Positions 2,376 through 32,414 of a stretch of 32,414 bases of DNA are shown here, piece by piece. Each line of letters opens with the position of its first letter. Within the stretch, counting starts at the first letter, position 1. The translations under genes and the position numbers were made by a program. The notes beneath the pieces are model-generated. The model did no database searches. It was not told the DNA's origin and was given only the letters and a program-made list of their open reading frames with translations. This DNA comes from an uncultured Eubacteriales bacterium (GTDB lineage Bacteria > Bacillota > Clostridia > Oscillospirales > RGIG577): the NCBI GenBank assembly GCA_964564795.1, contig CAZMCJ010000004.1, forward strand, positions 1 through 32,414, written 5' to 3'.

Positions 2376-2404
2376 TTGAAAAATAGAGGTTTTTGTGGTA
2401 TTCT
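2376..2404 (+). promoter_or_regulatory. Candidate sigma-70 promoter for gltX-glnS
   Basis: TTGAAA (2376-2381), a 17-nt spacer ending in TGg (extended -10), then TATTCT (2399-2404). This would place the transcription start downstream of the track's 2393 start codon. Confidence 0.4.
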
Positions 2405-2437
2405 AAAATATATGCCCAGAAAGGAAATGAACGTGAA

Positions 2438-4093: not shown

Positions 4094-4113
4094 AAGTGAA
4101 AGGAGCAACTTTA

Positions 4114-15474: not shown

Positions 15475-16302
15475 TTAGAATGAAATGTCCAGCCACTCCG
15501 GAATCTTCATTATTATCTCGTCCACGCACACAACTGCGCCCTTTATTACGCCATCATTATAAAGTTTTTCCGCAACTGTATATCCATTCAAAACTGCCTT
15601 TAGCTTGCTTTCTTTTGATAGTTTTCCCACCTTTACCGTCACAACCTGTCCCCTAATATCAGTGCCTTCGTCAATCTCCTCAGCAAAGCAGCGCACAATA
15701 TTTTCGTCGTCGCAATCAGTCATATTTGCAATATAAGTTGCGCAACCATCTGCAACCGATGCCTTATCCGCAAAGACGCTAACGAAGGTGGCAATACCCT
15801 TGGAGAAGCTTCGTCCACTCATTCCACTGGTGCAAATACCACAAATTTCGTCCTCTTTTTTTATGCAAATCACCATTTTGCCACCATCTTTAAAGGGTAT
15901 TCCAACCTTTATGGGTGTTTCTTCTGTGTTATAAATTGCAATGTCGCCACCATTGTTAATAATTACCTTTGTTGCTCCCAAGCTCCCCCCTATTTCAGCA
16001 CCGTATTCGGAAAAGGAACCTGCAACCGCGCCCAATGTGTTAAGCTCATCATAGCCCGTTTTTGCAACACCCGTAATCATTTTATTGAGTACAGTTGGTA
16101 GTTTTTCATTTGGCTCTTTAAAGGTTCGCATTTCTTTTAGCATATTAACAAAAGGTGTTAGCCGATTAAATTCGGCTAACACACAATTTGCGACAACGCA
16201 AGATATTTCGCTGTTTTTAACACCATCTACAAAGCAATCAATAGCCATTTGTATAGGCCCGTAATCCAAAAAAACACGATTATCTTCCAGTATCTTTATC
16301 AT
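15475..16302 (-). CDS. UPF0280/ApbE-like superfamily protein (tentative), coupled to the 6-hydroxynicotinate reductase gene
   Basis: 275-aa ORF starting 2 nt after the hnr stop. The motifs IINNGGDIAIY and CTSGMSGRSFSKG resemble ApbE/UPF0280 blocks. That resemblance is from memory, not from a search. The coding call is strong; the family call is tentative. Confidence 0.5.
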   Translation of the reverse strand: MIKILEDNRVFLDYGPIQMAIDCFVDGVKNSEISCVVANCVLAEFNRLTPFVNMLKEMRTFKEPNEKLPTVLNKMITGVAKTGYDELNTLGAVAGSFSEYGAEIGGSLGATKVIINNGGDIAIYNTEETPIKVGIPFKDGGKMVICIKKEDEICGICTSGMSGRSFSKGIATFVSVFADKASVADGCATYIANMTDCDDENIVRCFAEEIDEGTDIRGQVVTVKVGKLSKESKLKAVLNGYTVAEKLYNDGVIKGAVVCVDEIIMKIPEWLDISF

Positions 16303-16304
16303 AT

Positions 16305-17816
16305 TTATTTACCAAGTTGCTTCAAAAGCTCTTCTTTTGTGATGATGTTTGCCTTGTGGCCGCCTAGCTCTATATACTTCTCTTTTGTCATAGTATATTC
16401 GATTGGGGCAACCGTTGCAGGTGTTGGCACCCAAGTGATTGGGTCTTCAATCATCTTAGAAACGTCAACCATAAAGTTGATTCCGCCACCCGGCAAGATG
16501 AATACAGGAACACCTGCAATAGACATTCTAACCTCGTCGTTATGCACAGCCTCAGTTAGCTTTTTAGGGTAAGTTGTGACACCCGCCCTTGCGCTACCAC
16601 CCGTACCACCTGTGTAAATAACGGAAACAGAAGATGTCTCACAAGTTTCTGTTATAAGGTCTGCAACCGCTCTAACTTCAGGGGTCATATCAATTTCCTT
16701 AACGCTTCCATCTTCTTGGATTTCCAAAAGTCCCGCTTTTCTGCCTGTTGTCTCTGTTACAAGAATTTTCATTCCCGCTTTTGCAATGCTCATATCTACG
16801 CTAACAACCGCATCAATAGGGTTTGAAACCTCTGTTCCGCCCCAGCCGTGGCCTTGCTTACCAAAGTATCTGCCCCTTGTGCTCTTTGTTCCATATGGCA
16901 CAACTCCGCTGTACTTCATGCCAACCTCTGCGCCTGCCAAATGCTCAGACAGAAGACCGATAACGTGGTAGTCAAGCACGATAACCTCGTCAACAACCTT
17001 GCTCATTGCGCTTGCGAACATTCCAACTGTTGCGCTACCACAACCAACACGCATAACATCTTCCTCTTGGCCGTCAATAACAGGCTTGTGCCCTTGTTGC
17101 AATTCCATTTTGGAACCACCGTCCACCTTTAGGGTAACACGTCTACCATTTGCAAGGTCAACAATTGTTTTTGCAACTATAAATCCGTCATTACCATGGC
17201 TTAGAAGATTTGCGCCGCCAATTGTAAGCATTTTGGAGCCATACTCCTCAGTTGTAATCATACCAACGATTTTGCCGTCTCTTTTAACCTTTGCACCCTC
17301 TTCTCCAATGTGGAAGTTGGTGTCTATCTTAACTTTAACTCCGCTGTAACTTAGTGGTGCTTCTGTTACAACTGTTACAACGTCAACTGATTTTTGGTTT
17401 TCCTCAACAATGTATGGAGCCGGACGGCAGCAAGGATAGCTTGTTCCACTACCAACCGCTGTTGTGATTGGCTTAACCGGCAATGAATCCTTAACGGTTT
17501 CCTTAATATTGGACTCAGTAACAAGGGGTCTGTTCCTTATTATTTCGCCATTTATGTTTGTATAGCGTGTGCAAGCTCCCTTGCACCCCTCTGGGATTGT
17601 GCAGCGAACTGGGCAATGTGTGCATACTTCGGAGCCTTTAACATCTTCAACCGTTTTGGTTATTGATTTAAATGGGCAAACTCTTGCACAAATTCCGCAA
17701 GAAACGCAGTTGTCCTTAGTATATGCAAGCTTTTCTCTGACTTCAATTGCATCTAGTGGACAGTTTTTAACGCAAATAGAACAGCCTTTACAGGTGTCTA
17801 GGTTAATGTTTATCAT
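16305..17816 (-). CDS. hnr: 6-hydroxynicotinate reductase-like iron-sulfur flavoprotein
   Basis: 503-aa ORF. It has two 4Fe-4S ferredoxin motifs (C9xxC12xxC15xxxC19P and C37xxC40xxC43xxxC47P) plus a third cysteine cluster, C65xxC68xxxC72...C78xxxC82. This fits the reported cluster content of E. barkeri Hnr. The gene neighbourhood also supports the call. Confidence 0.7.
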   Translation of the reverse strand: MININLDTCKGCSICVKNCPLDAIEVREKLAYTKDNCVSCGICARVCPFKSITKTVEDVKGSEVCTHCPVRCTIPEGCKGACTRYTNINGEIIRNRPLVTESNIKETVKDSLPVKPITTAVGSGTSYPCCRPAPYIVEENQKSVDVVTVVTEAPLSYSGVKVKIDTNFHIGEEGAKVKRDGKIVGMITTEEYGSKMLTIGGANLLSHGNDGFIVAKTIVDLANGRRVTLKVDGGSKMELQQGHKPVIDGQEEDVMRVGCGSATVGMFASAMSKVVDEVIVLDYHVIGLLSEHLAGAEVGMKYSGVVPYGTKSTRGRYFGKQGHGWGGTEVSNPIDAVVSVDMSIAKAGMKILVTETTGRKAGLLEIQEDGSVKEIDMTPEVRAVADLITETCETSSVSVIYTGGTGGSARAGVTTYPKKLTEAVHNDEVRMSIAGVPVFILPGGGINFMVDVSKMIEDPITWVPTPATVAPIEYTMTKEKYIELGGHKANIITKEELLKQLGK

Positions 17817-17834
17817 AAAATGTTCTCCTTACAA

Positions 17835-18986
17835 TTACTTAGTAGCTTTTCTTGTTGCCGGTGGTGTGTTTCTGCTTGCCCCATACATCACCTTACCATC
17901 AATAATAGCCATAGAGATACCTGTGATGTCGCCAGCCTCAAGAGCCTCCAGTGCAGTTTTGCCAACAGAGCCAAGTGGTGCGTCCATTATAACAAAGTCA
18001 GCCTCTTTGCCCTCAGCAATGATACCAACGTTTAAGCCATAAACCTTTGCAGTGTTACCTGTTGCACAGCAGATTGCTTCAGCTGCGCTGATATCCGTTT
18101 GTGATGCAACATATGCAATGTTTCTTAGAATACCAAGTGGGATTATGCCAGTTCCTGATGGAGAGTCATTACCCATAATCAGTCTGTCAATTGCACCTGC
18201 TTTTTTGATTTGGTTGCAAGCATATTGCATAATCTTAAAGTTACCGCATTGAACAATCTCAAGCGCCATCTTAGTTTCATTAATTAGCCTATCAACTTCC
18301 TCCGTACCGATAGAAGTGGGTCCACCATTGACGTGGGAAACAACGTCTGGGTCTGTATCAATAACCATTTGTGCAGTTACTGTGCTAGAGCCTGGGATTG
18401 AAGTTCCGCCCGTGTGCATTTGAACTTTAAATCCATATTTTCTTGCCCACTGAATCATTTGGTTTGCTTCCTTAGGGTCCTTAACGGAGCCAAGCCCAAT
18501 TTCGCCAACAATAAAGCAGCCCTCTTTTGCCAAATCCTCAAAGTCCTTCTCAACAAGGCCTTTTTCCAAAATAAGCGCACCACCATGCAGTTTAACACCA
18601 CCCGGACGAGCATTTTGGGAAGACTTGTGGCAAACAAGTGCCAATGCCTTTGTGCCGGATGCGTCCTTTGGTCTGCCTGGTGTGTGTGGCTCTCCTGCGG
18701 AAATCATTGTTGTTACACCGCCATGAAGGGAGCTATCTATATAAGATATTATGCTTTGACGTGGTGAAAAATCCCCCAAAACAGGGTGAACGTGTGAATC
18801 AATAAATCCTGGTGTTACCGTTGTGCCGTTAGCGTCGATAGTTTGCTCAACCGCTACCCCAGATAGGATATCCTCGCCACCTATTTTAACAATTTTGCCG
18901 CCGTCAATCAAAATAGTAGTTGCATCCAAAATTGGGTTTTTAATATCACCGGATACAAGGGTGCCAATATTTTTAATAGCAATCAT
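17835..18986 (-). CDS. ena: Enamidase (amidohydrolase superfamily; hydrolyses 1,4,5,6-tetrahydro-6-oxonicotinate)
   Basis: It has the amidohydrolase metal motif GFIDSHVHP, is about 383 aa long, and sits in the right context. I prefer the ATG at 18986 (MIAIKNIG), 8 nt after GGAGG, over the GTG at 19001. Confidence 0.75.
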   Translation of the reverse strand: MIAIKNIGTLVSGDIKNPILDATTILIDGGKIVKIGGEDILSGVAVEQTIDANGTTVTPGFIDSHVHPVLGDFSPRQSIISYIDSSLHGGVTTMISAGEPHTPGRPKDASGTKALALVCHKSSQNARPGGVKLHGGALILEKGLVEKDFEDLAKEGCFIVGEIGLGSVKDPKEANQMIQWARKYGFKVQMHTGGTSIPGSSTVTAQMVIDTDPDVVSHVNGGPTSIGTEEVDRLINETKMALEIVQCGNFKIMQYACNQIKKAGAIDRLIMGNDSPSGTGIIPLGILRNIAYVASQTDISAAEAICCATGNTAKVYGLNVGIIAEGKEADFVIMDAPLGSVGKTALEALEAGDITGISMAIIDGKVMYGASRNTPPATRKATK

Positions 18987-19019
18987 CTTTGGTTCCTCCA
19001 CTTTCTTTTTAAAAATGTA

Positions 19020-19886
19020 TTATAGTGTTACAAATTCGTCCTCTAACTTGCCAAAGTCGCCAAGGCCAACAAGCTCGTTGAAGTCTGGGAATGTAATCAT
19101 TGTGTCCATACTTGTTTTTGTGGTACCGTCCTCTTTTAGCTTGTTCATCAGTGTGAACATTGCCTTTGCAGTAACGTAAGTTGATGCAGTTGGGTAGATA
19201 ACAAGGGAATATCCGATTTCCTCAAGCTCCTTGTTTGTTGGCATTGGTGTTCTGCCACCTTCAACCATATTTGCAAGAGTTGGCTTTGTGATAGCCTTGT
19301 GAACCATCTCCATCTCCTCTTTGCTCTCAACGCTTTCAACGAAGATTATGTCTGCCCCTGCAGCTTCGTATGCCTTAGCACGTCTGATAGCTTCCTCTAT
19401 GCCGTGGTTTGTGCGTGCATCTGTTCTTGCAATGATGCAAAAATCAGGGTCTTTTCTTGCGCTAACCGCAGCTTTGATTTTGCCAACCATTTCTTCCATA
19501 GAAATAACCTTGCGCCCAGCCATATGCCCACATCTCTTTGGTGCAATTTGGTCTTCCAACTGAATTGCCGCAACACCTGCCGCTTCGTATTCCTCAACGG
19601 TTCTCATAACAGTTATAGCGTTGCCAAATCCGGTATCTCCGTCCGCAATAACAGGAACATCAACAGATGTAACCATCTTTCTTGCTCTGTCTAGCATCTC
19701 GCTCATGCAAAGTAGCCCAATATCAGGTTTGCCAAGTGCGCTCGCCGCTTGTCCATAACCGGTCATATACACTGCTTTGAACCCGCATTTTTCAATAACC
19801 CTTGCCGTTAATGCATCGTGTGCACCCGGAGCCACCAAAATTTCCTTATCTGCCAATAATTGTCTTAATTGTGTTGTCTTTTTCAT
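19020..19886 (-). CDS. dml: 2,3-dimethylmalate lyase (isocitrate lyase/PEP mutase superfamily)
   Basis: The sequence is PEP mutase/ICL-like (GAHDALTARV, DGDTGFGN, EDQIAPKRCGH) and about 288 aa long. The ATG at 19886 follows GGGAGG. Confidence 0.75.
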   Translation of the reverse strand: MKKTTQLRQLLADKEILVAPGAHDALTARVIEKCGFKAVYMTGYGQAASALGKPDIGLLCMSEMLDRARKMVTSVDVPVIADGDTGFGNAITVMRTVEEYEAAGVAAIQLEDQIAPKRCGHMAGRKVISMEEMVGKIKAAVSARKDPDFCIIARTDARTNHGIEEAIRRAKAYEAAGADIIFVESVESKEEMEMVHKAITKPTLANMVEGGRTPMPTNKELEEIGYSLVIYPTASTYVTAKAMFTLMNKLKEDGTTKTSMDTMITFPDFNELVGLGDFGKLEDEFVTL

Positions 19887-19903
19887 AGAACCTCCCAAAT
19901 TTT

Positions 19904-21313
19904 TTATAGTTTAAAGTCGTCTTTTAATACATTAAATCCGTAATTTTTATCAACCTGTGCTATGACGCCGCCTGTGTATAAAATGTAATTTTTATCAATG
20001 ATGACATTGAATTTAGTGGGTAGCAATGAAATACCCTTATTTTTAAAGGCGTTTCTTATAATGCTCTCACTCTCCTCTTTATCCCTGTTTGCAAACATAC
20101 CACCAACTGCAATAACTGTTTTAACATTGCGTAAATCCCTGCCAATTGGCATACCGTCCCGCACACCTGTTACCGGGTCTGGCGTTGTTGCAATGTAGCC
20201 TGCGTGGCGCTTTATGGCAACCTCCACCGCTGTTTGGGCAAGCATCGTGTCAAAATCATATTCCTTTTTATTTTGTGGAAGATAGCGCGTGTTTTCCTCC
20301 ACCATCTCACAATAGTTTGCAAATTGCTCTGTAATTTCATCGTCCTTAATACCATTTTTAGCAAGAATCATACGTGGGCTGACTGTGCCTGTAACCCCTG
20401 TTGCGCTAACACGCATTCCAAGGTTACCCTCCACCGTCCTAAAGGACATCTGGCGGTAGTTGCCAACAACAAGCCCAATTTCCTCGTCCTCCATATCCTC
20501 GTACTCGGGAATTACCGAGTGGACATCGGTGGTTGCACCACCCAAATCAATAACAAGGATATCACCAATACCCTCGTTTTCATCAACACCCCTTGCAAGT
20601 ATTTCGCTTGCAAGGAGCACCGCACCCGGAGTTGGGATAATTTTGTCGTTTGTGATTTGGGTTGTTAAAACATCAAGCCCTTTTGCCTTTGTGATTTGCT
20701 TGATAAACTCCCTGTGGATTGCCTCCCTTGCATCGTCCACCAGTAGCTTATGGATTGTCGGCATTATGTTTGGCACACGAACATATGGCACGCTACCCTC
20801 TTTAAGGATTTTTGCAACCTTGCTTTGCGCCGCAACATTACCTGCAATTAAAACCATGCTTTTAACATTGCTTTGGACAATAAGGTGTGCATTTTCAACT
20901 ATAGAGGTTTCGTCGCCATAGTCAGTCCCCCCCGCAAGCAAAATAATATCGGGCATAATCTCTTTTAAAATCTCAATCCTATATTCAGGTGGATTTTCAC
21001 TTGAGATAATCTCCAAAATTTTTGCACCGCTGTTCATAGCAACCGCTGCCGCCGCCTTGCCTGTTACACGTGCCATATACCCCATCGCAACCATTCTAAG
21101 CCCACCCGCAGCACTAGATGAGGACAAAACGTGCTTTGCACTAATCTCGCTAATATTTAGCTGATCGCACAATAGCTTTTGCCCGTCCCTAATACCTAGG
21201 TAAACATTTTCAAGTGTTGTTGGGGTTGCGGCACTTGCCATAAGCTTGTAATCCTTAAAAACTCTTTGCTTTGTATAGGTGCTGCCTATATCAATAACCA
21301 AATAATCAAACAT
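19904..21313 (-). CDS. MutL/GlmL-like protein (putative reactivase or chaperone for the B12-dependent mutase)
   Basis: 469-aa ORF. The N-terminus LVIDIGSTYTK and a later LVIDLGGATTDV are ASKHA/actin-fold phosphate motifs, as in glutamate mutase component L. The start codon abuts the mii stop (TAAATG). Confidence 0.7.
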   Translation of the reverse strand: MFDYLVIDIGSTYTKQRVFKDYKLMASAATPTTLENVYLGIRDGQKLLCDQLNISEISAKHVLSSSSAAGGLRMVAMGYMARVTGKAAAAVAMNSGAKILEIISSENPPEYRIEILKEIMPDIILLAGGTDYGDETSIVENAHLIVQSNVKSMVLIAGNVAAQSKVAKILKEGSVPYVRVPNIMPTIHKLLVDDAREAIHREFIKQITKAKGLDVLTTQITNDKIIPTPGAVLLASEILARGVDENEGIGDILVIDLGGATTDVHSVIPEYEDMEDEEIGLVVGNYRQMSFRTVEGNLGMRVSATGVTGTVSPRMILAKNGIKDDEITEQFANYCEMVEENTRYLPQNKKEYDFDTMLAQTAVEVAIKRHAGYIATTPDPVTGVRDGMPIGRDLRNVKTVIAVGGMFANRDKEESESIIRNAFKNKGISLLPTKFNVIIDKNYILYTGGVIAQVDKNYGFNVLKDDFKL

Positions 21314-22462
21314 TTATCTCACCGTATAAACATTACCGTCCATAATTCTTCTTGCCGTTCTGTTTATTTCTGCTCTTGTTAGTTTCCAGCCATCATTTTC
21401 TTTTTCAGCGGTAACGTTTAGTGCAATTACCCCTGCTGGGTGACCGATTTTGATTTCCACATCTCCGCCCCTGTTTTTTGCAACCATTGCTTCATTTACA
21501 ATGCTGCCCTCAATCCTAGCTGCTGCGCCTGTGCAAACCGTTGCAGTTCCTGCATAAGTTTTATGCACAACTTGCATAAACAATAGTCTTGATACAAAGT
21601 CAATATCGCTTTCTTTAATAACTTTTCCCTTTGTAAAGTCCTTATATTCCCTCGCCTCGGAGATAACAGCAATCATTGGGAAAGCTGGGATTTCCTTAAC
21701 TGCGTCCTCCCAATTTTCTATAAGCCCCATCTTAACTGCGCCCTTTGCCCTAATTTCCTCCAAGGTTTTAAGTAGCTCCTTGTTTTCATCAATTTGCGCA
21801 GGTGTTTCAATCCCTGTCATATTAAGGTCCTTCGCCCTTACAAAAACAACTGGGTTTGCAGCGTCAACCAAGGACGCCTCAATCTCACCGTAGCCCTCAA
21901 CTTCAATCTTATCAATTGCATTTCCTGTTGGAAGTAGTTTTCCTGTTGCAGCGCCTGCAGCATCGGAGAAGTCAATAACAACCTCTGACCCTTTTCCCGG
22001 AACCCCTGCAATTTCGTAGTCGCCTGTTACCTTTGCCTTGCCGTTTACAACCTCAACCTTTTCAACAAGAAGCTTTCCTGTGTTTGTGTTGTTAATTATA
22101 ACGTTTGTGTATGGCTCTGTTACTGTTACAAGCCCTTCGTCAACCGCAAACGGTCCAACACCGGCGGAGATGTTTCCGCAGTTGCCCGAGTAATCGATTG
22201 TTGGCGCACTGTATGATACTTGACCGAAAGTATAGTCAATATCCGCATCTTCCCTTGTTGATTTGCCAATTATTGCAAGCTTGCTTGTTAGTGGGTCTGC
22301 TCCGCCCAAACCATCAATTTGGCGGATATCAGGGCTGCCAAAAATTTTAAGGATAAGCTCATCTCTTTCCTTTTGGTCCTTTGGCAAGTTCTCCTCTTTA
22401 ATGTAAATTCCTTTGCTAGTGCCGCCCCTCATTATAACAACGGGTGTCTTAATTTGTTCCAT
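21314..22462 (-). CDS. mii: 3-methylitaconate delta-isomerase (PrpF family)
   Basis: 382-aa ORF with a PrpF-type N-terminus PVVIMRGGTSKGIYI. It is adjacent to the mutase gene and has a strong RBS, AAAGGAGGA. Confidence 0.75.
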   Translation of the reverse strand: MEQIKTPVVIMRGGTSKGIYIKEENLPKDQKERDELILKIFGSPDIRQIDGLGGADPLTSKLAIIGKSTREDADIDYTFGQVSYSAPTIDYSGNCGNISAGVGPFAVDEGLVTVTEPYTNVIINNTNTGKLLVEKVEVVNGKAKVTGDYEIAGVPGKGSEVVIDFSDAAGAATGKLLPTGNAIDKIEVEGYGEIEASLVDAANPVVFVRAKDLNMTGIETPAQIDENKELLKTLEEIRAKGAVKMGLIENWEDAVKEIPAFPMIAVISEAREYKDFTKGKVIKESDIDFVSRLLFMQVVHKTYAGTATVCTGAAARIEGSIVNEAMVAKNRGGDVEIKIGHPAGVIALNVTAEKENDGWKLTRAEINRTARRIMDGNVYTVR

Positions 22463-22487
22463 CTTTATTGTCCTCCTTTAATGTAAC

Positions 22488-24335
22488 TTACTTTGTTAGT
22501 TGTGCTTCCATCCACTGCACTTGCTTTGCAACGTCTGTGCCCGGTCCGAAGAATGCATCAACACCAAGGAACCCTGTTCCTTCGTCCTTCATCTTCTTTT
22601 CATACATAGCGTGCTCTTCTTCTTTTTCTGCAATTCTGCCGCCCGCAAATAGTGTAACCTTATCCCGCAATCCTAGCTCCTTAAGCCTTTTATCCACACG
22701 TGGGAAAAGCTCAATTCCAAGTCCTAAAAGGTTGGAAACACCAACAAACCTTGCGTTTGTTTCAGCCACAACATCTGCAACTGTTTCAGGCAAATTCATT
22801 CCTCTTAGGAAGATAACCTCGTAGCCCGCTTGCTCGATAGCCTCCTTAGCAAGGTTTATGCCCATAACGTGCGCATCTGCTCCAACAGTTGCAAGAACAA
22901 CCTTTTCCTTCTTTGTGATAACAGCAGGTGGCGCAACATAAACGTCAGCCTCGCTTACAGGCATATATTTTTCGTCAACACCAAGTGGTGTGTAGCCTTT
23001 AACATAACGACGGATTCCGTCAACATCTCTGTGGGTTTTAACAAACCTCTTAAGGTCCCAGCCCCCTGCACGTGGTGTATCCATAACGCCAGCCTTGCCC
23101 GCCTCAACAATAAGGTCGATAAGCTCCATCTCGCCATATGAATCCCAGAACTCAGGTGTGATGTCGGCAACTTCAAGCATTTTATCCTTCTTAAGCACAG
23201 CGGTCAGAACTGCCATTGCCTCTTGTTGGATTTCAACTTTACGCTCGTCGATAAATGGGTCATTTATATTAACCTTGTAGGTGTTATCAAACACGTTTTG
23301 TGTTGCCCAAATAGCCTTAGCCATAGAGTCGCCCGTTGGTATTCCAACATTTTCCGCCGCTTTTGGACGGTAGAAGTTAACACCCGATAGCTTAGCCGTA
23401 GTTGCCATTCTTGCAAAGTGGGCTTGCTCTGCAATCAAATCTGCCGGTGGGTTTTGGAATGTTTCAGGCACGCAGATTATAAACTCACTCCAGATGCTCT
23501 CTCTAAACGCTTTAACCAGCGCCAAATCAGCCAAAATATTTATGCCAGCAACATTCATTTGGATACCGCTTAGGCTCTTTGGCAGACCCGCTTTAACAGC
23601 AAGTCCTTCAGCAAGCAGGCACATTGCAAGCGCCATACCGTCTGTTCCCATAATGTTGTTGATGTGCTTGTGGGTATCAAGCTGTGCAAAAATTCCGTTT
23701 TCTGCGCAAAGCTCAATTGCCTTAAAGCCGTTAACAACCTTAGTTTTAAAATCGTGAATTCCCCTGCCACCAAAGTGAACGTGGATAACAGGTCCGATGT
23801 CTGTTCCGTCAAAGCCTGCAATTAGTGCATTTAACACATTTAAGTGGGTTGTATCTCCGGTTGAGTTAACACGGATTGGGTGTACCTTACCGCCCCCCAT
23901 TTGAACAAACTCACGCTCACCCATTGGTGTGATTCCGCCTTTTCCCCTTGATTGCTCGATAAGCTCAATCCCATCCTTTGGATCGATGTGACGAGTAGCC
24001 TCGGAGTGAACAAATTGGAAAATTGTAATGCCTAGTTTCTCCGCCATATCATACATAGCTTGAGATTCTTTAAATGTTTCCTCTGCGGAGTTTCTGCCTA
24101 GAATTGGGTTCATAACAGGCGAGTTTTTTGCAACCGCTTCTCTGCCTAGCGCCGCAATTCTGTGTCCACCACGCTCAACACCATCAACAACCCTCGGGTA
24201 TGCCTCCGGCAAGTCGCAAATTTCCCCTTTTTCATTTATATAAGGCATTGGTGCGTTATAAGCTTTTGCAAAAGCCTCAATAGCTTCAATATCCTCTCTG
24301 ATAATTCTTTCTGTTCTTGGTCTTTGTTTAATCAT
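22488..24335 (-). CDS. mgm: 2-methyleneglutarate mutase, adenosylcobalamin-dependent
   Basis: 615-aa ORF. The C-terminal B12-binding domain carries the DxHxxG motif (VGADAHVMG) followed by GMNLP...VGVSNLLG. The size and architecture match the single-polypeptide E. barkeri Mgm. It is flanked by the isomerase and reactivase genes. Confidence 0.75.
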
Positions 24336-24344
24336 TTTATCCTC

Positions 24345-24854
24345 CTAAATTATGTTAAGCTTGCGCTTTACTTTTTCCATAAGCCCGCCCGCCTCAAGGG
24401 TTTCAAGTGTGCTCTTACCCAATGGCAAAAGTGTGTAGCTCTTGTTTTTGGTAACATTTCTAAGTGTTGCATTTTTTATGTCCGCTTCCAAAACATCCCC
24501 CTCGGAATAGTCTGCCTTAATCATATCAATATCATTACTTGTGATAACAGGAAGCCCAATGTTTATTGAGTTCTTCCTAAATATCATCGCAAAGCTTTTT
24601 GCAATAATTGCCCCCGCCTTGCACCCTTTTATTGCAACAGGTGCTTGCTCACGTGATGAGCCGCAACCAAAGTTGTCGCCGCCAATTATAATATCCCCTT
24701 CTTCACACAAATCATAGAAGTTTGGGATAGCGCTTCCCGAAAGTGCAACTGTGCATAGCTTTTGTGGAGCATAGCTCATTGCAAAACCCGGTAAAATCTG
24801 GTCTGTGTCTACATTATCTCCAAGGATAAACCCTTTTCCTTTTACTGTAAGCAT
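24345..24854 (-). CDS. dmdB: Aconitase-family dehydratase small subunit, assigned as (2R,3S)-dimethylmalate dehydratase small subunit
   Basis: 169-aa LeuD-like swivel domain (GDNFGCGSSREQAP). Its stop codon overlaps the mgm RBS. The assignment rests on context. Confidence 0.7.
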   Translation of the reverse strand: MLTVKGKGFILGDNVDTDQILPGFAMSYAPQKLCTVALSGSAIPNFYDLCEEGDIIIGGDNFGCGSSREQAPVAIKGCKAGAIIAKSFAMIFRKNSINIGLPVITSNDIDMIKADYSEGDVLEADIKNATLRNVTKNKSYTLLPLGKSTLETLEAGGLMEKVKRKLNII

Positions 24855-24867
24855 TTTTCTCCACCCC

Positions 24868-26061
24868 TTATCTTACGGTGTTAGGCTCAACAATGAAGCC
24901 CATTACCGCACTTTCTGCAACCACACGTGGTGATGCCAAATAAACAGATGCATTTTTATGCCCCATTCTTCCAGGGAAGTTCCTGTTAGTGGAGGAAATG
25001 CAAGTGTCTTCCTCTGTTAAAAGCCCTTGATGAGATCCAAAGCAAGGCCCGCAGCCTGGGTTTGTGATAATTGCACCGGCCTCCCTAAAGATTTTAGTAA
25101 GCCCATTTTCCTCCATCATCTCCGCAATTCGCTTTGATGCAGGAGCAATAACCATATTAACGTGATTTGCAATTTTTCTTCCCTTTAAAACACTGGCTGC
25201 AATTTCCATATCACTATATCTGCCGTTTGTGCATGATCCAATAACAGCTTGATTAATTTTCGTGCCCCTAATTTGTGAAAGTGGCTTAACGTTGCCTGGT
25301 GACGACGGGCAAGCAGCGCAAGGAACAATTGTTTTAGCATCAATCTTATGCGTAACGGATACATCGCCAATTGGCTCCCTTCCATCATCTATGTAGCCAA
25401 TCATTGCTCCCATTTCAATCATCATATTGGAAATCGTCATCTTCTCCTCATACGGCAAATCAAAAATAGCCTTTCCGGTAAAGATAACCGCCCTATCGGT
25501 AAATCCATTTGTTGTGAACATTCCAATTGTGTGCAGGATTATATCCTTGCCATAAACAAACTCATTAAGCTCTCCCTCAATCTCTATAACACAAACAGGT
25601 GGAACCTCCAAATCAAGCTCGCCCAGCGCCATAACTGCAGCTGTTTCGGTGGAGCCAAGGGGTATTGCCACAACGCCATGCGCACCCGCTGTGCAAGTGT
25701 GGGAATCTGCGCCAACGATTATGTCCCCTTTTTTGTAAAGCCCTTCCTCGTACACAAGCTGGTGGATAACACCCTCGCTCCTGTTATATAGTTTTGTGCC
25801 AAACTCCTCACAAAATGCATAAACAATCTTATGTTGCACCCTTGACTCAACGGAAGAACAAGGAATGTTATGATCCATTACAAAAACAACCTTGTCCTTA
25901 TCATAAACTTTATCAATACCAACTGTTCTAAACTGCTCAATAGCAATTGGTGCGGTAACGTCGTGGGCAATCGCCAAGTCAACCTTAACGCTAACTTCCT
26001 CACCGACGCTAACCTTATCAACACCTGCTTTATTCGCAATTATTTTTTCAATTATATTCAT
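24868..26061 (-). CDS. dmdA: Aconitase-family dehydratase large subunit, assigned as (2R,3S)-dimethylmalate dehydratase large subunit
   Basis: 397-aa short LeuC/HacA-like protein with Fe-S ligand regions (GADSHTCT, IGSCTNGR, NPGCGPCFG). No leuA or leuB is nearby. The assignment rests on context. Confidence 0.7.
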   Translation of the reverse strand: MNIIEKIIANKAGVDKVSVGEEVSVKVDLAIAHDVTAPIAIEQFRTVGIDKVYDKDKVVFVMDHNIPCSSVESRVQHKIVYAFCEEFGTKLYNRSEGVIHQLVYEEGLYKKGDIIVGADSHTCTAGAHGVVAIPLGSTETAAVMALGELDLEVPPVCVIEIEGELNEFVYGKDIILHTIGMFTTNGFTDRAVIFTGKAIFDLPYEEKMTISNMMIEMGAMIGYIDDGREPIGDVSVTHKIDAKTIVPCAACPSSPGNVKPLSQIRGTKINQAVIGSCTNGRYSDMEIAASVLKGRKIANHVNMVIAPASKRIAEMMEENGLTKIFREAGAIITNPGCGPCFGSHQGLLTEEDTCISSTNRNFPGRMGHKNASVYLASPRVVAESAVMGFIVEPNTVR

Positions 26062-26077
26062 ATATAAACCTCACTTC

Positions 26078-26965
26078 TTACTCTTTTACTTCGATATCCC
26101 CATACTCTTCGTAAAGTTTAATAACAGCAGAGATATCTTCCATTCCCAATCCCTTTGCGCGTGCTATTTCATAGGTTTGTTGTGCAACGTTGCCTAACAT
26201 TAGTGGCATTTTAAGGTCTTTTGCTGTGTCCACCGCAAGTTGCAAATCCTTGTACTGTAAATCAACCATAAATCCCGGCTTAAAGTTGCGCTTTGCAATA
26301 AAGTTTTCGTATTTTGCTGTTAATGCGTAAGATGAGCCTGAGCTTTCCTTGATAATATTATAAAGTATTTCCGGCTCGATTCCAGCCTTAACGCCAAGCG
26401 CCAACGCCTCACTCACTGCCACCATATTAACGCCCAAAAGCAGGTTATTAACAAGCTTAACGGTATCGCCCGCACCAACTGCGCCAACGTGGTTAACCTT
26501 TGTCCCAATACAGTTTAGAACAGGGAGCACCATTTCAAACTTTTCCTTATCGCCACCAACCATAATGGAAAGCGTGCCTTTTTCTGCCCCTATTGCGCCA
26601 CCACTAACCGGTGCGTCCAAAACTGTAACCCCTTTAGCCTCTGCCCTTTTTGCAATGTTTTGGATTGTCTTTGGTGTTATGCTGCTAAGGTCAACAATAA
26701 TTGCCCCCTCTTTAGCGCCCTCCAAAACTCCGTTTTTGCCTAGGATAACACCCTCAACAATTGCTGAGTTTGGTAGTGATGTAAAAATAACATCCTTGTC
26801 TTTTGCTAAATCGCAGCCAAGAACCTCTGATTTTGCACCCATTCCAACAAGCTCGTCAACCGCCTCTTTAACAAGGTCGGAAACTGTTACGTCAAAACCA
26901 TTTTTAACAATGTTAATTGCCATTCTTTTTCCCATAACGCCCAGTCCAATAAATCCTATTTTCAT
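26078..26965 (-). CDS. hgd: 2-(hydroxymethyl)glutarate dehydrogenase (3-hydroxyisobutyrate dehydrogenase family)
   Basis: 295-aa ORF with the Rossmann N-terminus MKIGFIGLGVMGKRMA and a beta-hydroxyacid dehydrogenase core (DAPVSGG, KLVNN). The specific assignment rests on context. Confidence 0.7.
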   Translation of the reverse strand: MKIGFIGLGVMGKRMAINIVKNGFDVTVSDLVKEAVDELVGMGAKSEVLGCDLAKDKDVIFTSLPNSAIVEGVILGKNGVLEGAKEGAIIVDLSSITPKTIQNIAKRAEAKGVTVLDAPVSGGAIGAEKGTLSIMVGGDKEKFEMVLPVLNCIGTKVNHVGAVGAGDTVKLVNNLLLGVNMVAVSEALALGVKAGIEPEILYNIIKESSGSSYALTAKYENFIAKRNFKPGFMVDLQYKDLQLAVDTAKDLKMPLMLGNVAQQTYEIARAKGLGMEDISAVIKLYEEYGDIEVKE

Positions 26966-26996
26966 AATTTTACTCCTTTATATTTGAATTTTTAGT

Positions 26997-27071
26997 CCTT
27001 ACCACATAAAAACCAACAATGTTTATTGGTTTTTATGTGGTAAGGCAAGGGAAAATTTCCCTTGCCTTACC
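26997..27071 (-). promoter_or_regulatory. Two overlapping, mutually exclusive perfect hairpins in the permease-hgd intercistronic gap
   Basis: Hairpin B has a 20-bp perfect stem, 26997-27016 with 27026-27045. Hairpin A has a 14-bp GC-rich stem, 27039-27052 with 27058-27071. Both need the 7-nt segment 27039-27045 (GGTAAGG on the plus strand). Confidence 0.6.
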
Positions 27072-27092
27072 ACTATATTGGGGGGATTGATA

Positions 27093-28136
27093 CTATAGAT
27101 CTAGTTTTTGATCTCCATCCTTAACCCAGCCAATTTTTCTGAAGAATCTGTCGAATCCCCAAGTTAGAACTGCAGGAAGAATAAAGCATATTAGCAAAAT
27201 TCCAATCCACATCATTGCTCCGCCTTCCATAGCTGCGATAACACCTAAAGGTCCAACAAGACCGGATGTACCCATTCCTGCACCGGTTGGGATGTTCTTC
27301 ATACCAAACACAACTGTTGCGATAGGGCCTGTAACTGCCGCCGCCAATGTTGGTGCAATCCAGATGCGTGGGTTTCTAACTATGTTACCAACTTGTAGCA
27401 TTGAAGTTCCTAGCCCTTGTGCAAAGAAACCGCCCCAGCCGTTTTCCTTGAAGCTTGCAACTGCAAAGCCCATCATTTGTGCACAGCAACCGGCTGTTGC
27501 AGCACCGGCAGCAAGGCCGCCAAGCTCAAGCATAATACAAAGTGCCGCAGAAGAAATTGGAAGAGTTAGCACGATACCAACAACAACGGATACAATGATA
27601 CCCATTGCTATAGGTTGCATTTCTGTTGCTAACATAACAATTTGGCCAAAGCCTCTCATAATTCCACCAACCATAGGACCAACAAGCATTGCAACTGTAA
27701 CACCGGCGATGATAGTAACAGTAGGAGTAACGATAATGTCAACCTTAGTTTCTTTAGAAACTAGTTTACCAAGCTCAACCGCAACGATTGTAGAAATAAG
27801 TGCGCTTAAAGGTCCGCCTTTACCAATTGCGTTACCAGCAAGACCAACTGCAGCAGCAGAGAACATAACAAGTGGCGGTGCCTTTAGTGCAAATGCGATT
27901 GCAACACCCATTGCAGGGCCTGTTGCCGCTTTTGCTTGGTTTGCAACCTCGATAAGGAAAGGAATGTTTAAGTTCTTACCAACCATATCCATAATTGTTC
28001 CAATAAGTAGTGATGCGAAAAGTCCAAGTGCCATTGTGCTCATTGCGTCAATAAAATAAGTTTTAACCGAGATTACTACACCTTTTCTCTTAAGAAAGCT
28101 CTCTTTCTTTTGAACATTTGCTCCGTTTTCTTGCAT
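27093..28136 (-). CDS. Polytopic membrane permease, PTS EIIC-like (PTS_EIIC_2-type, orphan); candidate nicotinate or 6-hydroxynicotinate carrier
   Basis: About 347 aa and highly hydrophobic, with blocks FIDAMSTMALGLFASLLIGTI, GPAMGVAIAFAL and GTSMLQVGNIVRNPRIW. I recall these from the short orphan EIIC family, and that recall is unverified. The ATG at 28136 lies 8 nt after AGGAGG. No EIIA, EIIB or HPr gene is in the window. Confidence 0.55.
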   Translation of the reverse strand: MQENGANVQKKESFLKRKGVVISVKTYFIDAMSTMALGLFASLLIGTIMDMVGKNLNIPFLIEVANQAKAATGPAMGVAIAFALKAPPLVMFSAAAVGLAGNAIGKGGPLSALISTIVAVELGKLVSKETKVDIIVTPTVTIIAGVTVAMLVGPMVGGIMRGFGQIVMLATEMQPIAMGIIVSVVVGIVLTLPISSAALCIMLELGGLAAGAATAGCCAQMMGFAVASFKENGWGGFFAQGLGTSMLQVGNIVRNPRIWIAPTLAAAVTGPIATVVFGMKNIPTGAGMGTSGLVGPLGVIAAMEGGAMMWIGILLICFILPAVLTWGFDRFFRKIGWVKDGDQKLDL

Positions 28137-28202
28137 AATCAAATCCTCCTAAAATATTATTATTTCATAAGCAAGGCACCCCTACCTTGCTTTTGACCAA
28201 AA

Positions 28203-30437
28203 TTATTTGTTAAGCTCGCGTAGCACATCCGTTGGTGTGATAGGAAGCTTATTAAATCTAACGCCAATTGCGTTTTCAATTGCACCCACAATAGCAGGAA
28301 TTATTGGAATAAGTGCCGGCTCTCCAACGCCCTTAGCGCCAAATGGTCCAGCCTCGCCCCCGCTTTCAACCACTATTGGGTAAATTTCAGGAATATCCAT
28401 TGATGTTGCCAGCAAATATTTAGAGAACATAGGATTTGTAATTCTGCCGTTTGTAACCTCAACTTTTTCAAAAAGCGCAAAACCTTGACCCATTACAACG
28501 CCACCCTCGATTTGACCTTCTACCATTTGCTTGTTAATTGCCTGGCCTACGTCGTGCGCAGAAACAACCTTTGTAAGGTATACTCTTCCTGTTTCTGTAT
28601 CCACCTCAACCTCTGCAACTGTTGTTGCATATGCATATGCCTCGTAAGGGATACCGCTCATATCAACAGGAGAAAGAAGTGTTGCATTTGGGTTGTATGA
28701 ACCTGCTCCAACAGCAAGCTTACCAAACTTCTTCATTTCTGCCATTAGGTCAATATAGCTCATCTTAATGCTATTGTCCTTTGCACTGAATATTTCGTTA
28801 TCTTTAAATATCAAGTCGTCCGCTTCTACTTTTAATACAGCAGACGCAACGCCCTTTAGTGTTTCCTTCGCCATTTTTGCTGCATTTCTGCTTGCATTAC
28901 CAGAGATAAATGTTTGTCTAGATGCGCTGGTTGCTCCACCCTCCGGTGTTACTGCCGTGTCTGCGGAGATAACGTTAACGTTATCATAAGAAACGCCAAG
29001 CTCCTCTGCAACAATTTGCGCCATAACAGTTGTTGACCCTTGACCGATATCCGCACAGCCAACCATAAGGTTAACCGAAGCATCATGCAAAACCTCAACA
29101 AAAGCAGCAGATGGGTTTGGAAGACCGGTGTTGCCAATTCCATACCACATTGAAGCAACGCTTCTGCCCTTAATGTTTTTATCCATAACTTCGTTTGCTT
29201 TAGCCTCTGCTTTGTCAAGTGTTTCTATAAGACCCATAGACTCAGTAAGAATTTGACCTGTTGCAATCTCACTACCAATCTTGTGGGCATTAATTCTTCT
29301 GATTTCATAGCCGTCCATATTAAGTGCCTTTGCAAGAGCATCCATTTGACCCTCGTGGCAAACTGCAATTTGTGGAACGCCGAACCCTCTAAACGCACCG
29401 CTCATTGGGTTGTTTGTGTAAACAAAGGTTGCATCAACCTTAACGTTTGGTATTTCATAAGGCCCTGTTGCATGAACCATTGCCCTTGTTATAACCGCAG
29501 GTCCGTAAGATGCGTATGCACCGGTATCACCCTCTATATAGCAATACATTGCAACCAATTTACCGTCTTTTGTTGCGCCTGTTTTTGCTGTCATCTTCAT
29601 TGGGTGACGTTTAGAGGAAACCATGTTAGATTCTTTTCTTCCCCTAACCATTTTAACCGGACGCTTTGTGTGGTAAGCAAGAAGTGCCATATGGCATTGA
29701 ACAGAAATATCAAGCTTTCCTCCAAAACCACCACCCGTTGTAAGCTGAACGCTTCTAACTTTGCTGTTTGGCATATTAAGCATTTTTGCAACTTCGCCTC
29801 TATCAAAGTGAGGATTTTGGGTGGAGCTATAAATTGTTATAATTCCATCTTCATACTTTGCAAGACCACCGTCCGGCTCAATATACATATGAGAAAGCAT
29901 TGCTGTTTCGTATGTGTTTTCCACAATAACGTCACATTTCTTAAACGCTTCATCTATTTCCATACCATGCGAAAGAACCTTCTTTTGCATTATATTGGTT
30001 GTTCCGATAATCTTTGGAGAATCCTCCTCCAACGCTCTTTCAACAGTTAAAATCGCTTCAATTTCTTCATACTCAATTGCAACCAGCTTTGCCGCTTCCT
30101 CTGCAATTTCCATTGTTTCTGCACCGATAACCGCAATAGCATCGCCATATCTTCTAACCTTGTCATCAACCAAAACCGGCTCATCTTTAAAAATAATACC
30201 AATTCTGTTGCTACCGGGAATATCCTTGCTTGTTAGCACTGCAACAACGCCCTCTAGAGCTTTTGCCTTTTCCAAATCAATACTTTTTATATAAGCAGAT
30301 GGAACTGTGCTTCTTACAACAACGCCATAAATCATATTTGGAATTTCCATATCTGCAGCGAAAACAGCCTTGCCCAAAACTTTATCCATAGCATCCTTTT
30401 TAAGGACGCTTTTGCCAATTACTGAAAAGTCTTTCAT
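28203..30437 (-). CDS. Molybdopterin-binding large subunit of a xanthine dehydrogenase-family hydroxylase, assigned as nicotinate dehydrogenase Mo subunit (fused NdhL+NdhM equivalent)
   Basis: About 744 aa counted from [10 protein letters not shown], with an RBS AAAGGAGG. It has the Mo-hydroxylase motifs TTGGGFGGK and [10 protein letters not shown], and the C-terminal catalytic Glu region AKGVGEPAL. Confidence 0.8.
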
Positions 30438-30453
30438 TACATTACCTCCTTTA

Positions 30454-30918
30454 CTATTTTTCGATAGCCATCTCAACAGCGTTGATTATTTTTGTGTAAC
30501 CTGTGCATCTGCAAAGGTTGCCCGAAAGTGCTCTTTTAATTTCGTCCCTTGATGGGTTTTTATTTTCTATAAACAATGCCTTTGCGGAAAGTATCATTCC
30601 CGGTGTGCAGTATCCGCATTGAACAGCGCCTGCGTCCAAAAACGCTTGTTGCAATCTATCTAGCTCGCCGTTTTTATAAAGCCCTTCAAGAGTAACAACT
30701 GTGCAACCGTCCACTTGACCTGCAAGCATAAGGCAAGAGGTAACAGCCTTATCATCAACTATTATTGTGCAGGCACCACATTCGCCCTCTGAGCACCCTT
30801 CTTTAACGCTTTTTATTCCAAAATCGTCACGAAGCATATCTATAAGCCTTTTGTTTGGTGCAATTTCCGCACTAACTTTTTCATAATTCAGTGTAAATTC
30901 AACTTTAATTTTTTCCAT
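30454..30918 (-). CDS. ndhS: [2Fe-2S]-binding small subunit of the Mo hydroxylase (nicotinate dehydrogenase small subunit)
   Basis: It has the plant-type motif CSEGECGAC...C, the second-cluster motif CGYCTPGM...CRCTGY, and is about 154 aa long. I prefer the ATG at 30918, 8 nt after the G-run RBS, over 30924. Confidence 0.85.
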
Positions 30919-30933
30919 GTGCATTTCCCCCCC

Positions 30934-31797
30934 TTAGTTAAAATCTTTTAGTATTTCATCAAACATTTTTCTTGCAGTACCTTTAACGCTCATCTTTTTG
31001 TAGGTAACGGAAGGTCTGTTACTTATGTTTGAGACTGCTGTTGTAAATAAATCAAGTGTGTTATAAAGGTTTTCCTTGTTAACAACCTTGCCTAGCAGTT
31101 GCTCTTCCACAAGTGGAACACGAATTGGGTGGGGTGCAACTGCACCTATAACCACTTGCGCCTTTGTGCATACTCCGCTTTCGTCCTTTTCTATAGCGCA
31201 CGCTGTTGATATAACAACGATTGCCAGCGACTCTCTCTTTGCAAGCTTAGAGAAGCTTGTTCTAACATTTTTTGTTGGTTCAGGGAAGGATATTTCCACC
31301 AAAAGCTCATCGCTTTCAATTTTTGTTCCTTGACCTTTTTCATTATTAAACTCAGTCAACTTAACTGTTCTTGTGCCTTTTTTTGATGCCAGAGTCAAGC
31401 TTGCATCAAGCGCAATAAGTGATGCAGGAGAATCTCCCGCAACAGATGCGTTGATAACGTTTCCTCCAATTGTTCCAAGGTTTCTAATTTGTGGCGAGCC
31501 TACTTGCACTGCCATTGTGTGCAAAATTTTAAGGTTGTTTTTAACATACTCGCTCTTCTCAAGCTCGGTAAATGTGGTCATTGGCCCAATTTTTACAGCG
31601 CCATCTTCCACCTTAATAAACTTAAGTTCTTCAATTTTGCTTATATCAACCATATTTCGCCCTTTTTCATGGCCCTCATTCAACTCAAGCACAACATCAG
31701 TTCCTCCTGCAACTATTGTTACACTTTCCTTTTTGTCGTTTAACACTTCAACCGCTTGTTCAATTGTCTTTGGCATAAAATATTCAAACTTTTTCAT
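30934..31797 (-). CDS. ndhF: FAD-binding subunit of the Mo hydroxylase (nicotinate dehydrogenase FAD subunit)
   Basis: 287-aa CoxM/XdhB-like protein with the FAD-binding motif IVAGGTDVVLEL...GTIGGN. It is the first gene of the cluster, with an RBS GGGAGG. Confidence 0.85.
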   Translation of the reverse strand: MKKFEYFMPKTIEQAVEVLNDKKESVTIVAGGTDVVLELNEGHEKGRNMVDISKIEELKFIKVEDGAVKIGPMTTFTELEKSEYVKNNLKILHTMAVQVGSPQIRNLGTIGGNVINASVAGDSPASLIALDASLTLASKKGTRTVKLTEFNNEKGQGTKIESDELLVEISFPEPTKNVRTSFSKLAKRESLAIVVISTACAIEKDESGVCTKAQVVIGAVAPHPIRVPLVEEQLLGKVVNKENLYNTLDLFTTAVSNISNRPSVTYKKMSVKGTARKMFDEILKDFN

Positions 31798-31831: not shown

Positions 31832-31860
31832 ATTATATCAATTTTGTACATTTTGCGAAA
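31832..31860 (-). promoter_or_regulatory. Candidate sigma-70 extended -10 promoter of the nicotinate cluster
   Basis: On the minus strand: TTCGCA, a 16-nt spacer, then TGaTATAAT (the TATAAT is the reverse complement of 31832-31837). The implied leader to the ATG is about 30 nt. Confidence 0.45.
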
Positions 31861-32087: not shown

Positions 32088-32414
32088 ATGAAAAAATTAA
32101 CTAGTTTTGTGCTAGCTGCAATTATGTCTTTAACATTGGTTGCTTGCTCTGCTCCAGCTCCCGCTCCAACGCCAACACCGGAACCACCAAAGGTTGAAAC
32201 TCCTTCACCCGAGGTAAAACCAGAGTTCTCTCCCATTACCCTAACCGACCACGCAGGACGAGAAGTTAAGGTCGAAAAAGAGTTTGATCGAATCGTTAGC
32301 GGATACTACATCACAACGTCCACACTTATTGCACTTGGTCTTGAAGACAAGGTTGTTGGGCTTGAGGCGAAAGCCAAATCCCGTCCCATTTACTCCCTTG
32401 CTGCTCCACAATTG
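32088..32414 (+). CDS. ABC transporter substrate-binding lipoprotein, siderophore/cobalamin (FhuD/BtuF-like) class; N-terminal part, runs off the right edge
   Basis: My own translation gives [95 protein letters not shown]... This shows a lipobox (LVAC), a Pro/Thr-rich linker, and then the block typical of periplasmic-binding-protein type 2 N-termini. GAGGTG lies 5 nt upstream. Confidence 0.75.

Follow-up and report, generated by a model that had tools for sequence, protein, structure and literature searches.

The window analysed here, the whole 32,414-nt stretch of contig CAZMCJ010000004.1 from an uncultured Eubacteriales bacterium (GenBank assembly GCA_964564795.1), carries on its minus strand, read from 31797 down to 15475, a set of 14 intact open reading frames (ORFs) that all point in one direction (Table 1). 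Their order is ndhF-ndhS-ndhL(M)-EIIC-hgd-dmdA-dmdB-mgm-mii-glmL-dml-ena-hnr-UPF0280, and we consider it very likely that they are an operon by which nicotinate is fermented anaerobically, as in Eubacterium barkeri. The set was picked out in an earlier note made from the letters of the sequence, and the ORF listing bore out the number, shared direction and extent of the genes, while scans against Pfam and NCBIfam recovered every protein family that the note had named. Its range stopped short in one respect, leaving out a co-directional sigma-54 activator gene 31 nt downstream of the cluster. For four genes, a better start than that of the listed ORF was found at an ATG behind a good Shine-Dalgarno site: 30437 for the molybdenum (Mo) subunit of the hydroxylase (listed as 28203-30476, with a TTG start), 28136 for the permease (27093-28142), 19886 for Dml (19020-19898) and 18986 for Ena (17835-19001). 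The site before the Mo subunit reads aaaggagg. With these starts, the gaps from ndhF to UPF0280 measure 9, 16, 66, 127, 16, 13, 9, 25, 0, 17, 33, 18 and 2 nt. In agreement with the earlier note, only the 66-nt and 127-nt gaps are longer than 60 nt, and the abutting TAA/ATG described at 21314/21313 is real. Shine-Dalgarno sites and short gaps are found throughout, and none of the ORFs is broken.

Table 1. Positions of the cluster genes and of other features in the window, with products as predicted.
Feature	Coordinates	Strand	Basis
ndhF, nicotinate dehydrogenase FAD subunit, 287 aa	30934..31797	-	FAD_binding_5 + CO_deh_flav_C; PDB 3hrd_C
ndhS, nicotinate dehydrogenase [2Fe-2S] subunit, 156 aa	30454..30924	-	Pfam Fer2_2 + Fer2; PDB 3hrd_D
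ndhLM, fused molybdopterin subunit, 744 aa from ATG 30437	28203..30437	-	3hrd_A + 3hrd_B
PTS_EIIC_2-family permease	27093..28136	-	Pfam PF13303
Permease-hgd spacer with two stem-loops	26966..27092	-	Folding energy
hgd, 2-(hydroxymethyl)glutarate dehydrogenase, 295 aa	26078..26965	-	PDB 3cky; NAD_binding_2/11
dmdA, aconitase-family large subunit	24868..26061	-	Pfam Aconitase; NCBIfam
dmdB, aconitase-family small subunit	24345..24854	-	Aconitase_C; TIGR02087
mgm, coenzyme-B12-dependent 2-methyleneglutarate mutase, 615 aa	22488..24335	-	B12-binding domain; homologue names
mii, (R)-3-methylitaconate isomerase, 382 aa	21314..22462	-	PDB 3g7k; PrpF family
GlmL/MutL-like ASKHA protein	19904..21313	-	Pfam MutL; NCBIfam glmL_fam
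dml, 2,3-dimethylmalate lyase, 288 aa from ATG 19886	19020..19886	-	Pfam PEP_mutase/ICL; context
ena, enamidase, 383 aa from ATG 18986	17835..18986	-	PDB 2vun; Amidohydro_1/3
hnr, 6-hydroxynicotinate reductase, 503 aa	16305..17816	-	Fer4 families, Cys pattern, linkage
UPF0280 / ApbE-like protein	15475..16302	-	PRK04334; weak ApbE match
Sigma-54-dependent activator, 525 aa	13866..15443	-	Pfam Sigma54_activat + HTH_8; 31 nt downstream of cluster
Sigma-A-type promoter candidate, TTCGCA, 16 nt, TG-n-TATAAT	31832..31859	-	10/12 matches, extended -10 TG
Perfect palindrome, 20-bp arms, 4-nt loop	31908..31951	.	Divergent region, ndhF vs + strand ORF
Pyruvate:ferredoxin oxidoreductase, full length	10138-13665	-	TIGR02176 1825 bits
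Partial ORF, lipoprotein-type signal peptide	32088-32414	+	109-aa fragment, divergent from ndhF

Protein identities were assigned by homology, with best matches taken from searches against all PDB sequences and family calls made by Pfam and NCBIfam cut-offs. For context we also used a distribution scan, in which an Mgm profile was run against one genome per GTDB species. This returned Mgm-centred relatives in 143 species, and the loci of the best 80 were retrieved (the E. barkeri genome lies outside these 80); searched by tblastn with the window proteins, the 80 loci showed the window's gene set recurring together around Mgm. E. barkeri enzymes of the nicotinate pathway are the top PDB match for seven polypeptides, namely NdhF, NdhS, NdhL, NdhM, Ena, Hgd and Mii. 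NdhL and NdhM are separate chains in E. barkeri (3hrd_A and 3hrd_B), whereas in the window they are joined in one polypeptide, of which residues 15-432 match NdhL at 607 bits and residues 436-753 match NdhM at 417 bits; the domains found are Ald_Xan_dh_C and MoCoBD_1/2. Behind these come 4-hydroxybenzoyl-CoA reductase as runner-up, with 348 bits, and xanthine dehydrogenases, with about 215-230 bits. NdhF matches the E. barkeri FAD subunit at 234 bits (runner-up 102), NdhS matches 3hrd_D at 201 bits (runner-up 156), and the hydroxylase falls below every NCBIfam xanthine dehydrogenase cut-off. A nicotinate dehydrogenase is expected to be a xanthine-dehydrogenase-family enzyme with FAD, 2x[2Fe-2S] and Mo-pterin parts, and these parts are present. 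With the 3hrd chains so far ahead and those cut-offs missed, the hydroxylase stands apart from the xanthine and purine enzymes, a separation on which the nicotinate reading had been made to depend. As the Mo subunit is fused in about 20 related loci and split in about 17, the fusion itself is unremarkable. Ena aligns with E. barkeri enamidase (2vun) over residues 8-386 at 516 bits, with the runner-up in the PDB at 34, and Mii matches E. barkeri Mii (3g7k) at 468 bits against 268 for PrpF. For Hgd, a member of the 3-hydroxyisobutyrate dehydrogenase family by Pfam, the margin is moderate (283 bits to E. barkeri Hgd, 3cky, and 234 bits to tartronate semialdehyde reductase).

Hnr is a putative 6-hydroxynicotinate reductase, recognised from its cysteines and its neighbours. 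It has two CxxCxxCxxxC motifs at the N-terminus, followed by cysteines 65, 68, 72, 78 and 82, a pattern that fits two [4Fe-4S] clusters plus one further cluster; the purified E. barkeri enzyme is reported to hold two [4Fe-4S] clusters, one [2Fe-2S] cluster and a covalently bound flavin. Its gene is linked to ena and UPF0280 across the related loci. The motif MRVGCGSAT at residues 254-262 is at least 95% conserved among 52 homologues, except for V256 (at least 70%), and its GCGSAT segment is a candidate flavin site, although it differs from the canonical flavinylation motif, Dxx(s/t)gA(T/S). The UPF0280 gene lies directly after hnr in 49/54 loci. Its product scores 192 bits against the NCBIfam PRK04334 models, under the cut-off of 290, and matches Pfam ApbE weakly (E = 1e-3, under the cut-off); the orthologue in one close relative (L081) is annotated as Pfam 'AbpE_bact'. 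An hhalign comparison of 22 UPF0280 sequences with E. coli Ftp/ApbE gave a probability of 77% (E = 2e-5, 97 columns), with the invariant residues D185, A188 and T189 opposite ADAWDT, the ADxxxT metal-site region. Considering the conserved Hnr motif, the covalent attachment of the flavin reported for E. barkeri Hnr and the coupling of the two genes, it is reasonable to propose that the UPF0280 protein may install this flavin, as a flavin transferase or maturation factor. A literature search found nothing relevant on UPF0280 or on the distribution of the nicotinate cluster.

A 2-methyleneglutarate mutase (Mgm) is expected to have about 614 aa and a C-terminal DxHxxG domain; the window protein has its B12-binding domain at residues 478-584, with the motif as D487-A-H489-V-M-G492. 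The earlier note had made its reading depend on this protein being no closer to another mutase family, and other mutases in fact align over the B12 domain only: matches to glutamate mutase S, methylmalonyl-CoA mutase and corrinoid proteins are limited to the last ~140 residues and score at most 40 bits in the PDB and at most 63 bits in NCBIfam, and for the N-terminal ~470 aa neither database gave a match to another mutase family. In NCBI, UniRef and JGI, its full-length relatives (67-83% identity) go by the name of 2-methyleneglutarate mutase or mgm. The GlmL-like protein scores 441 bits against Pfam MutL and 281 bits against NCBIfam glmL_fam (cut-off 204), and its gene separates mii from dml in nearly every related locus; judged by the analogous glutamate mutase operons, the protein probably assists Mgm as an accessory or reactivating factor. 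DmdA reaches 436 bits in the NCBIfam large-subunit family (cut-off 385) and DmdB 142 bits in TIGR02087, the 'LeuD/DmdB family' (cut-off 109). Since dmdA also adjoins mgm in most related loci, family and context together point to a predicted (2R,3S)-dimethylmalate dehydratase. Dml lies below the NCBIfam cut-offs for PrpB and carboxyphosphoenolpyruvate (CPEP) mutase and has its PDB matches among 2-alkylmalate and dimethylmalate lyases, with petal death protein at 250 bits and Aspergillus niger dimethylmalate lyase at 204 bits; its assignment as the putative lyase follows from family and context.

Taken with the step chemistry described for E. barkeri, these identities allow a route to be proposed. 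Nicotinate would be taken up, probably by the EIIC-like permease, and hydroxylated to 6-hydroxynicotinate by the Mo/FAD/FeS enzyme made of NdhF, NdhS and the fused NdhLM. Hnr, an Fe-S flavoprotein whose covalent flavin would probably be attached by the UPF0280 protein, would then use ferredoxin to give 1,4,5,6-tetrahydro-6-oxonicotinate. Ena would open the ring, releasing NH3 and 2-formylglutarate, and Hgd would reduce the latter to 2-(hydroxymethyl)glutarate, from which a dehydratase, presumably a 2-(hydroxymethyl)glutarate dehydratase (Hmd) encoded outside the window, would form 2-methyleneglutarate. Mgm, with B12 and the GlmL-like helper, would rearrange this to 3-methylitaconate, Mii would isomerise it to dimethylmaleate, DmdAB would hydrate that to 2,3-dimethylmalate, and Dml would cleave the last intermediate to propionate and pyruvate. 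The permease itself scores 313 bits against Pfam PF13303 (PTS_EIIC_2), and about 25 of the 80 related clusters contain a homologue. Other clusters have major facilitator superfamily (MFS) or cytosine/purine-type permeases. The permease's predicted role in nicotinate import comes from this context. Likewise, we infer the operon structure, the roles of the GlmL-like and UPF0280 proteins and the location of Hmd.

The proposal of a route from nicotinate to propionate, pyruvate and NH3, already put forward in the earlier note, is thus supported, with E. barkeri structures as the top PDB matches for seven polypeptides, and the cluster is a genuine E. barkeri-type cluster of a known, widespread kind. 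Several points weigh against it. The E. barkeri versions of Hnr, Mgm, DmdAB and Dml are absent from the PDB, and DmdAB and Dml are placed by family and genomic context only. The substrate specificity of the hydroxylase is not readable from its sequence. Finally, no homologue of Hmd is encoded in the window (best tblastn E = 0.15), so the cluster alone does not encode the whole route. A rival reading is that the cluster degrades another N-heterocyclic carboxylate, a nicotinate analogue feeding the same lower pathway: sequence is a poor guide to the substrates that Mo hydroxylases accept, and the transporters vary among the relatives as described above. We regard this as extremely unlikely, as each of the hydroxylase polypeptides has a far better match in E. 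barkeri nicotinate dehydrogenase than in any other structurally characterised hydroxylase, and the lower pathway has enzymes specific to the C6 skeleton that nicotinate gives rise to.

The E. barkeri pathway reportedly has nine enzymes, the ninth being a serine-dehydratase-like [4Fe-4S] Hmd whose function was reportedly only predicted in 2006. The window shares with the E. barkeri cluster the Ndh FAD, FeS and Mo parts, Hnr, Ena, Hgd, Mgm, Mii, DmdAB and Dml but lacks Hmd. The list of pathway enzymes drawn up in the earlier note therefore holds for the eight that the window encodes (8/9) and overlooked the ninth. In the related loci, an Hmd-like gene is present in 71/82, mostly between hgd and dmdA; its product of ~470 aa has distant similarity to the serine dehydratase alpha family (TIGR00718, E = 7e-8; PF03313, E = 1e-6). 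At that site, the window has a spacing of 16 nt. The independent contig L082, whose Mgm is 83% identical, has the same hgd-dmdA junction without Hmd; the absence is not an assembly artefact. In two further close relatives, L001 and L081 (Mgm 82% identical), Hmd and DmdAB are both missing while mgm, mii and dml are retained, so dehydratases encoded in trans are needed in this clade anyway. In L010, of the next lineage, Hmd is located after the activator gene and an AA_synth gene, which shows that the gene can change its place in the cluster and also leave it.

One explanation to be weighed is that the cluster is a decaying remnant, in which the loss of Hmd (and in the nearest relatives of DmdAB too) broke the pathway so that nicotinate fermentation is no longer supported. 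The shared absences just described fit this, as does the lack in the window of the sigma-54 promoters found in other relatives. However, none of the 14 ORFs is shortened, their ribosome-binding sites are good, and in L010 Hmd has merely shifted to a place after the activator gene. In comparisons of the window with L081 and L082, synonymous divergence (dS) is saturated and the ratio of nonsynonymous to synonymous divergence (dN/dS) is 0.04-0.14, so the Hmd-less cluster is old and its layout has long been kept by purifying selection. Decay is therefore, in our view, decidedly unlikely. A different explanation is that the cluster suffices by itself and needs no Hmd, with dehydration of 2-(hydroxymethyl)glutarate as a further activity of its single aconitase-type pair or of another of its products; dmdAB lies directly after hgd and before mgm, the exact position of hmd in relatives, and L082 is arranged alike. 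Yet L001 and L081 keep mgm, mii and dml in the absence of both Hmd and DmdAB, and nothing sets the DmdA and DmdB of the window apart from their orthologues (72% and 58% identity) in Hmd-containing clusters. The chemistry is also a poor match, on general knowledge: in aconitase-type substrates the hydroxyl carbon also bears a carboxylate, whereas 2-(hydroxymethyl)glutarate is a primary alcohol that calls for serine-like chemistry. We judge self-sufficiency very improbable. A related proposal, that the clade of the window, L082, L001 and L081 may dispense with Hmd and have a non-homologous enzyme carry out the dehydration, in the window the aconitase-type pair, is likewise decidedly unlikely; if true, it would define a 14-gene, Hmd-free version of the pathway. 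Three close relatives share the layout without Hmd, and purifying selection acts on it; most simply, then, the gene for Hmd probably lies at another site in the genome.

Clusters of this kind occur in Proteiniborus, Sedimentibacter, Brassicibacter, Dethiosulfatibacter, Desulfitobacterium, Desulfosporosinus, Sporomusa and Neomoorella, as well as in Oscillospiraceae gut isolates and several Desulfobacterota; a metagenome scan for relatives returned none above 79% identity. The window's gene order and accessory genes had been put forward as different, but they are not peculiar to it, since the order recurs in L005, from a metagenome-assembled genome (MAG) of Proteiniborus, and in L002, L009 and L012, from MAGs of uncultured Clostridia/Bacillota. 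The two Sedimentibacter loci (L004 and L007) have nearly the same order with ena displaced, and protein identities between the window and these clusters range from 43 to 83%. The L005-type loci differ from the window in having hmd between hgd and dmdA and an AA_synth gene after UPF0280, in their split NdhL/NdhM and in sigma-54 promoters before hgd and, in some, before ndhF, none of which the window has. The AA_synth gene (PF06684, ~195 aa) is present in 65/82 loci (e.g., L002 19203-19790 and L081 1585-2169) and is absent from the window. In E. barkeri, the order is reportedly hnr-orf-hgd-ndhFSLM-...-ena-hmd-mgm-mii-...-dml-...-dmdAB, which would differ from that of the window.

The closest relatives are L081 (GCA_964369735.1), L001 and L082 (Logan ERR6050749), with Mgm 82-83% identical. 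All three resemble the window in that their clusters lack Hmd as well as sigma-54 promoters, and L001 and L081, whose contigs cover the Mo subunit, also in its fusion. Unlike the window, L001 and L081 lack dmdAB and the EIIC permease and have AA_synth upstream of ndhF. L081 continues beyond the cluster into a cytosine/purine-type permease, an AmiS/UreI channel and a nicotinamidase-like isochorismatase-family gene (16122-18796, just downstream), whereas the window continues into the sigma-54 activator and a pyruvate:ferredoxin oxidoreductase (PFOR). These L081 genes suggest that nicotinamide may be fed into the pathway there. Three loci with Mgm 78-82% identical to that of the Bacillota-like window (L001, L006 and L010) come from MAGs labelled Treponemataceae and Planctomycetaceae; such labels on clusters of this kind likely reflect misbinning or recent transfer. 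The window supplies a further intact case of a pathway that has been studied biochemically almost only in E. barkeri and whose cluster is widespread in genomes of anaerobic Bacillota and Desulfobacterota. The points of comparative interest are the Hmd-less clade, the coupling of hnr to UPF0280, which offers a testable explanation for the covalently bound flavin of Hnr, and the loss of sigma-54 promoters with the switch described below; none of them alters established knowledge of the pathway.

Control of the cluster also appears to differ among the relatives. In L002-L015 and L022, hgd is preceded at a distance of 54-103 nt by a canonical sigma-54 promoter (TGGCAT-N5-TTGCT/A; e.g., L002 5863 and L009 749), several of these loci have another before ndhF, and sigma-54 activator genes lie nearby, so in many Clostridia/Tissierellia relatives nicotinate fermentation is apparently controlled by sigma-54. 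In the window, a search of the intergenic regions for such promoters gave none. Instead, a sigma-A-type candidate (TTCGCA-16-TGaTATAAT) lies 35 nt upstream of the ndhF ATG, and control appears, from these motifs, to have been switched to a promoter of this type. Transcription would probably run from there through UPF0280 and perhaps into the sigma-54 activator gene. That activator, whose N-terminal 190 aa matched no domain family, is a possible regulator of the pathway; comparable sigma-54 activators flank about 14 related clusters and are 34-45% identical to it.

Where relatives have a sigma-54 promoter before hgd, the window has two strong stem-loops. They occupy the longest internal spacer of the cluster, between the permease gene and hgd, which has a fold energy of -46.3 kcal/mol (z = -7.5); the hairpins, at about 26997-27073, are adjacent and long and share a GTGGTAAGG/CCTTACCAC segment. 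GTGGTAAGG occurs three times in the window against 0.24 expected, each time in this spacer. CCTTACCAC is able to pair with GTGGTAAGG on either side, which gives the element a switch-like look, and no U-tract follows it. At the other end of the cluster, ndhF and a plus-strand ORF starting at 32088 are divergent and 290 nt apart, and the palindrome between them may be an operator. We considered whether the two-hairpin spacer and the palindrome were repeated or mobile elements, and rejected this, as neither is present elsewhere in the window or in 83 loci. An Rfam scan of the whole window gave no riboswitch or other RNA family.

Downstream of the activator, the PFOR is metabolically a plausible partner, as pyruvate is a product of the pathway. 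It was nevertheless rejected as a member of the cluster, since a gap of 200 nt and a separate promoter-like site set it off from the activator gene, and it is unlinked to the cluster in every related locus. Further downstream lie genes for ZapA, a U32 peptidase, dUTPase and Maf. The 109-aa fragment of the plus-strand ORF at 32088 had no Pfam match; by eye it is like the substrate-binding proteins that adjoin the clusters in L012 and L030. Elsewhere in the window, genes for glutamate--tRNA ligase and glutamine--tRNA ligase stand in tandem on the plus strand, 2 nt apart (2393-5757), and the start of the window holds a gene for a NuoE-like [2Fe-2S] protein (384-875, minus strand) and one for an iron alcohol dehydrogenase (1101-2270, plus strand).

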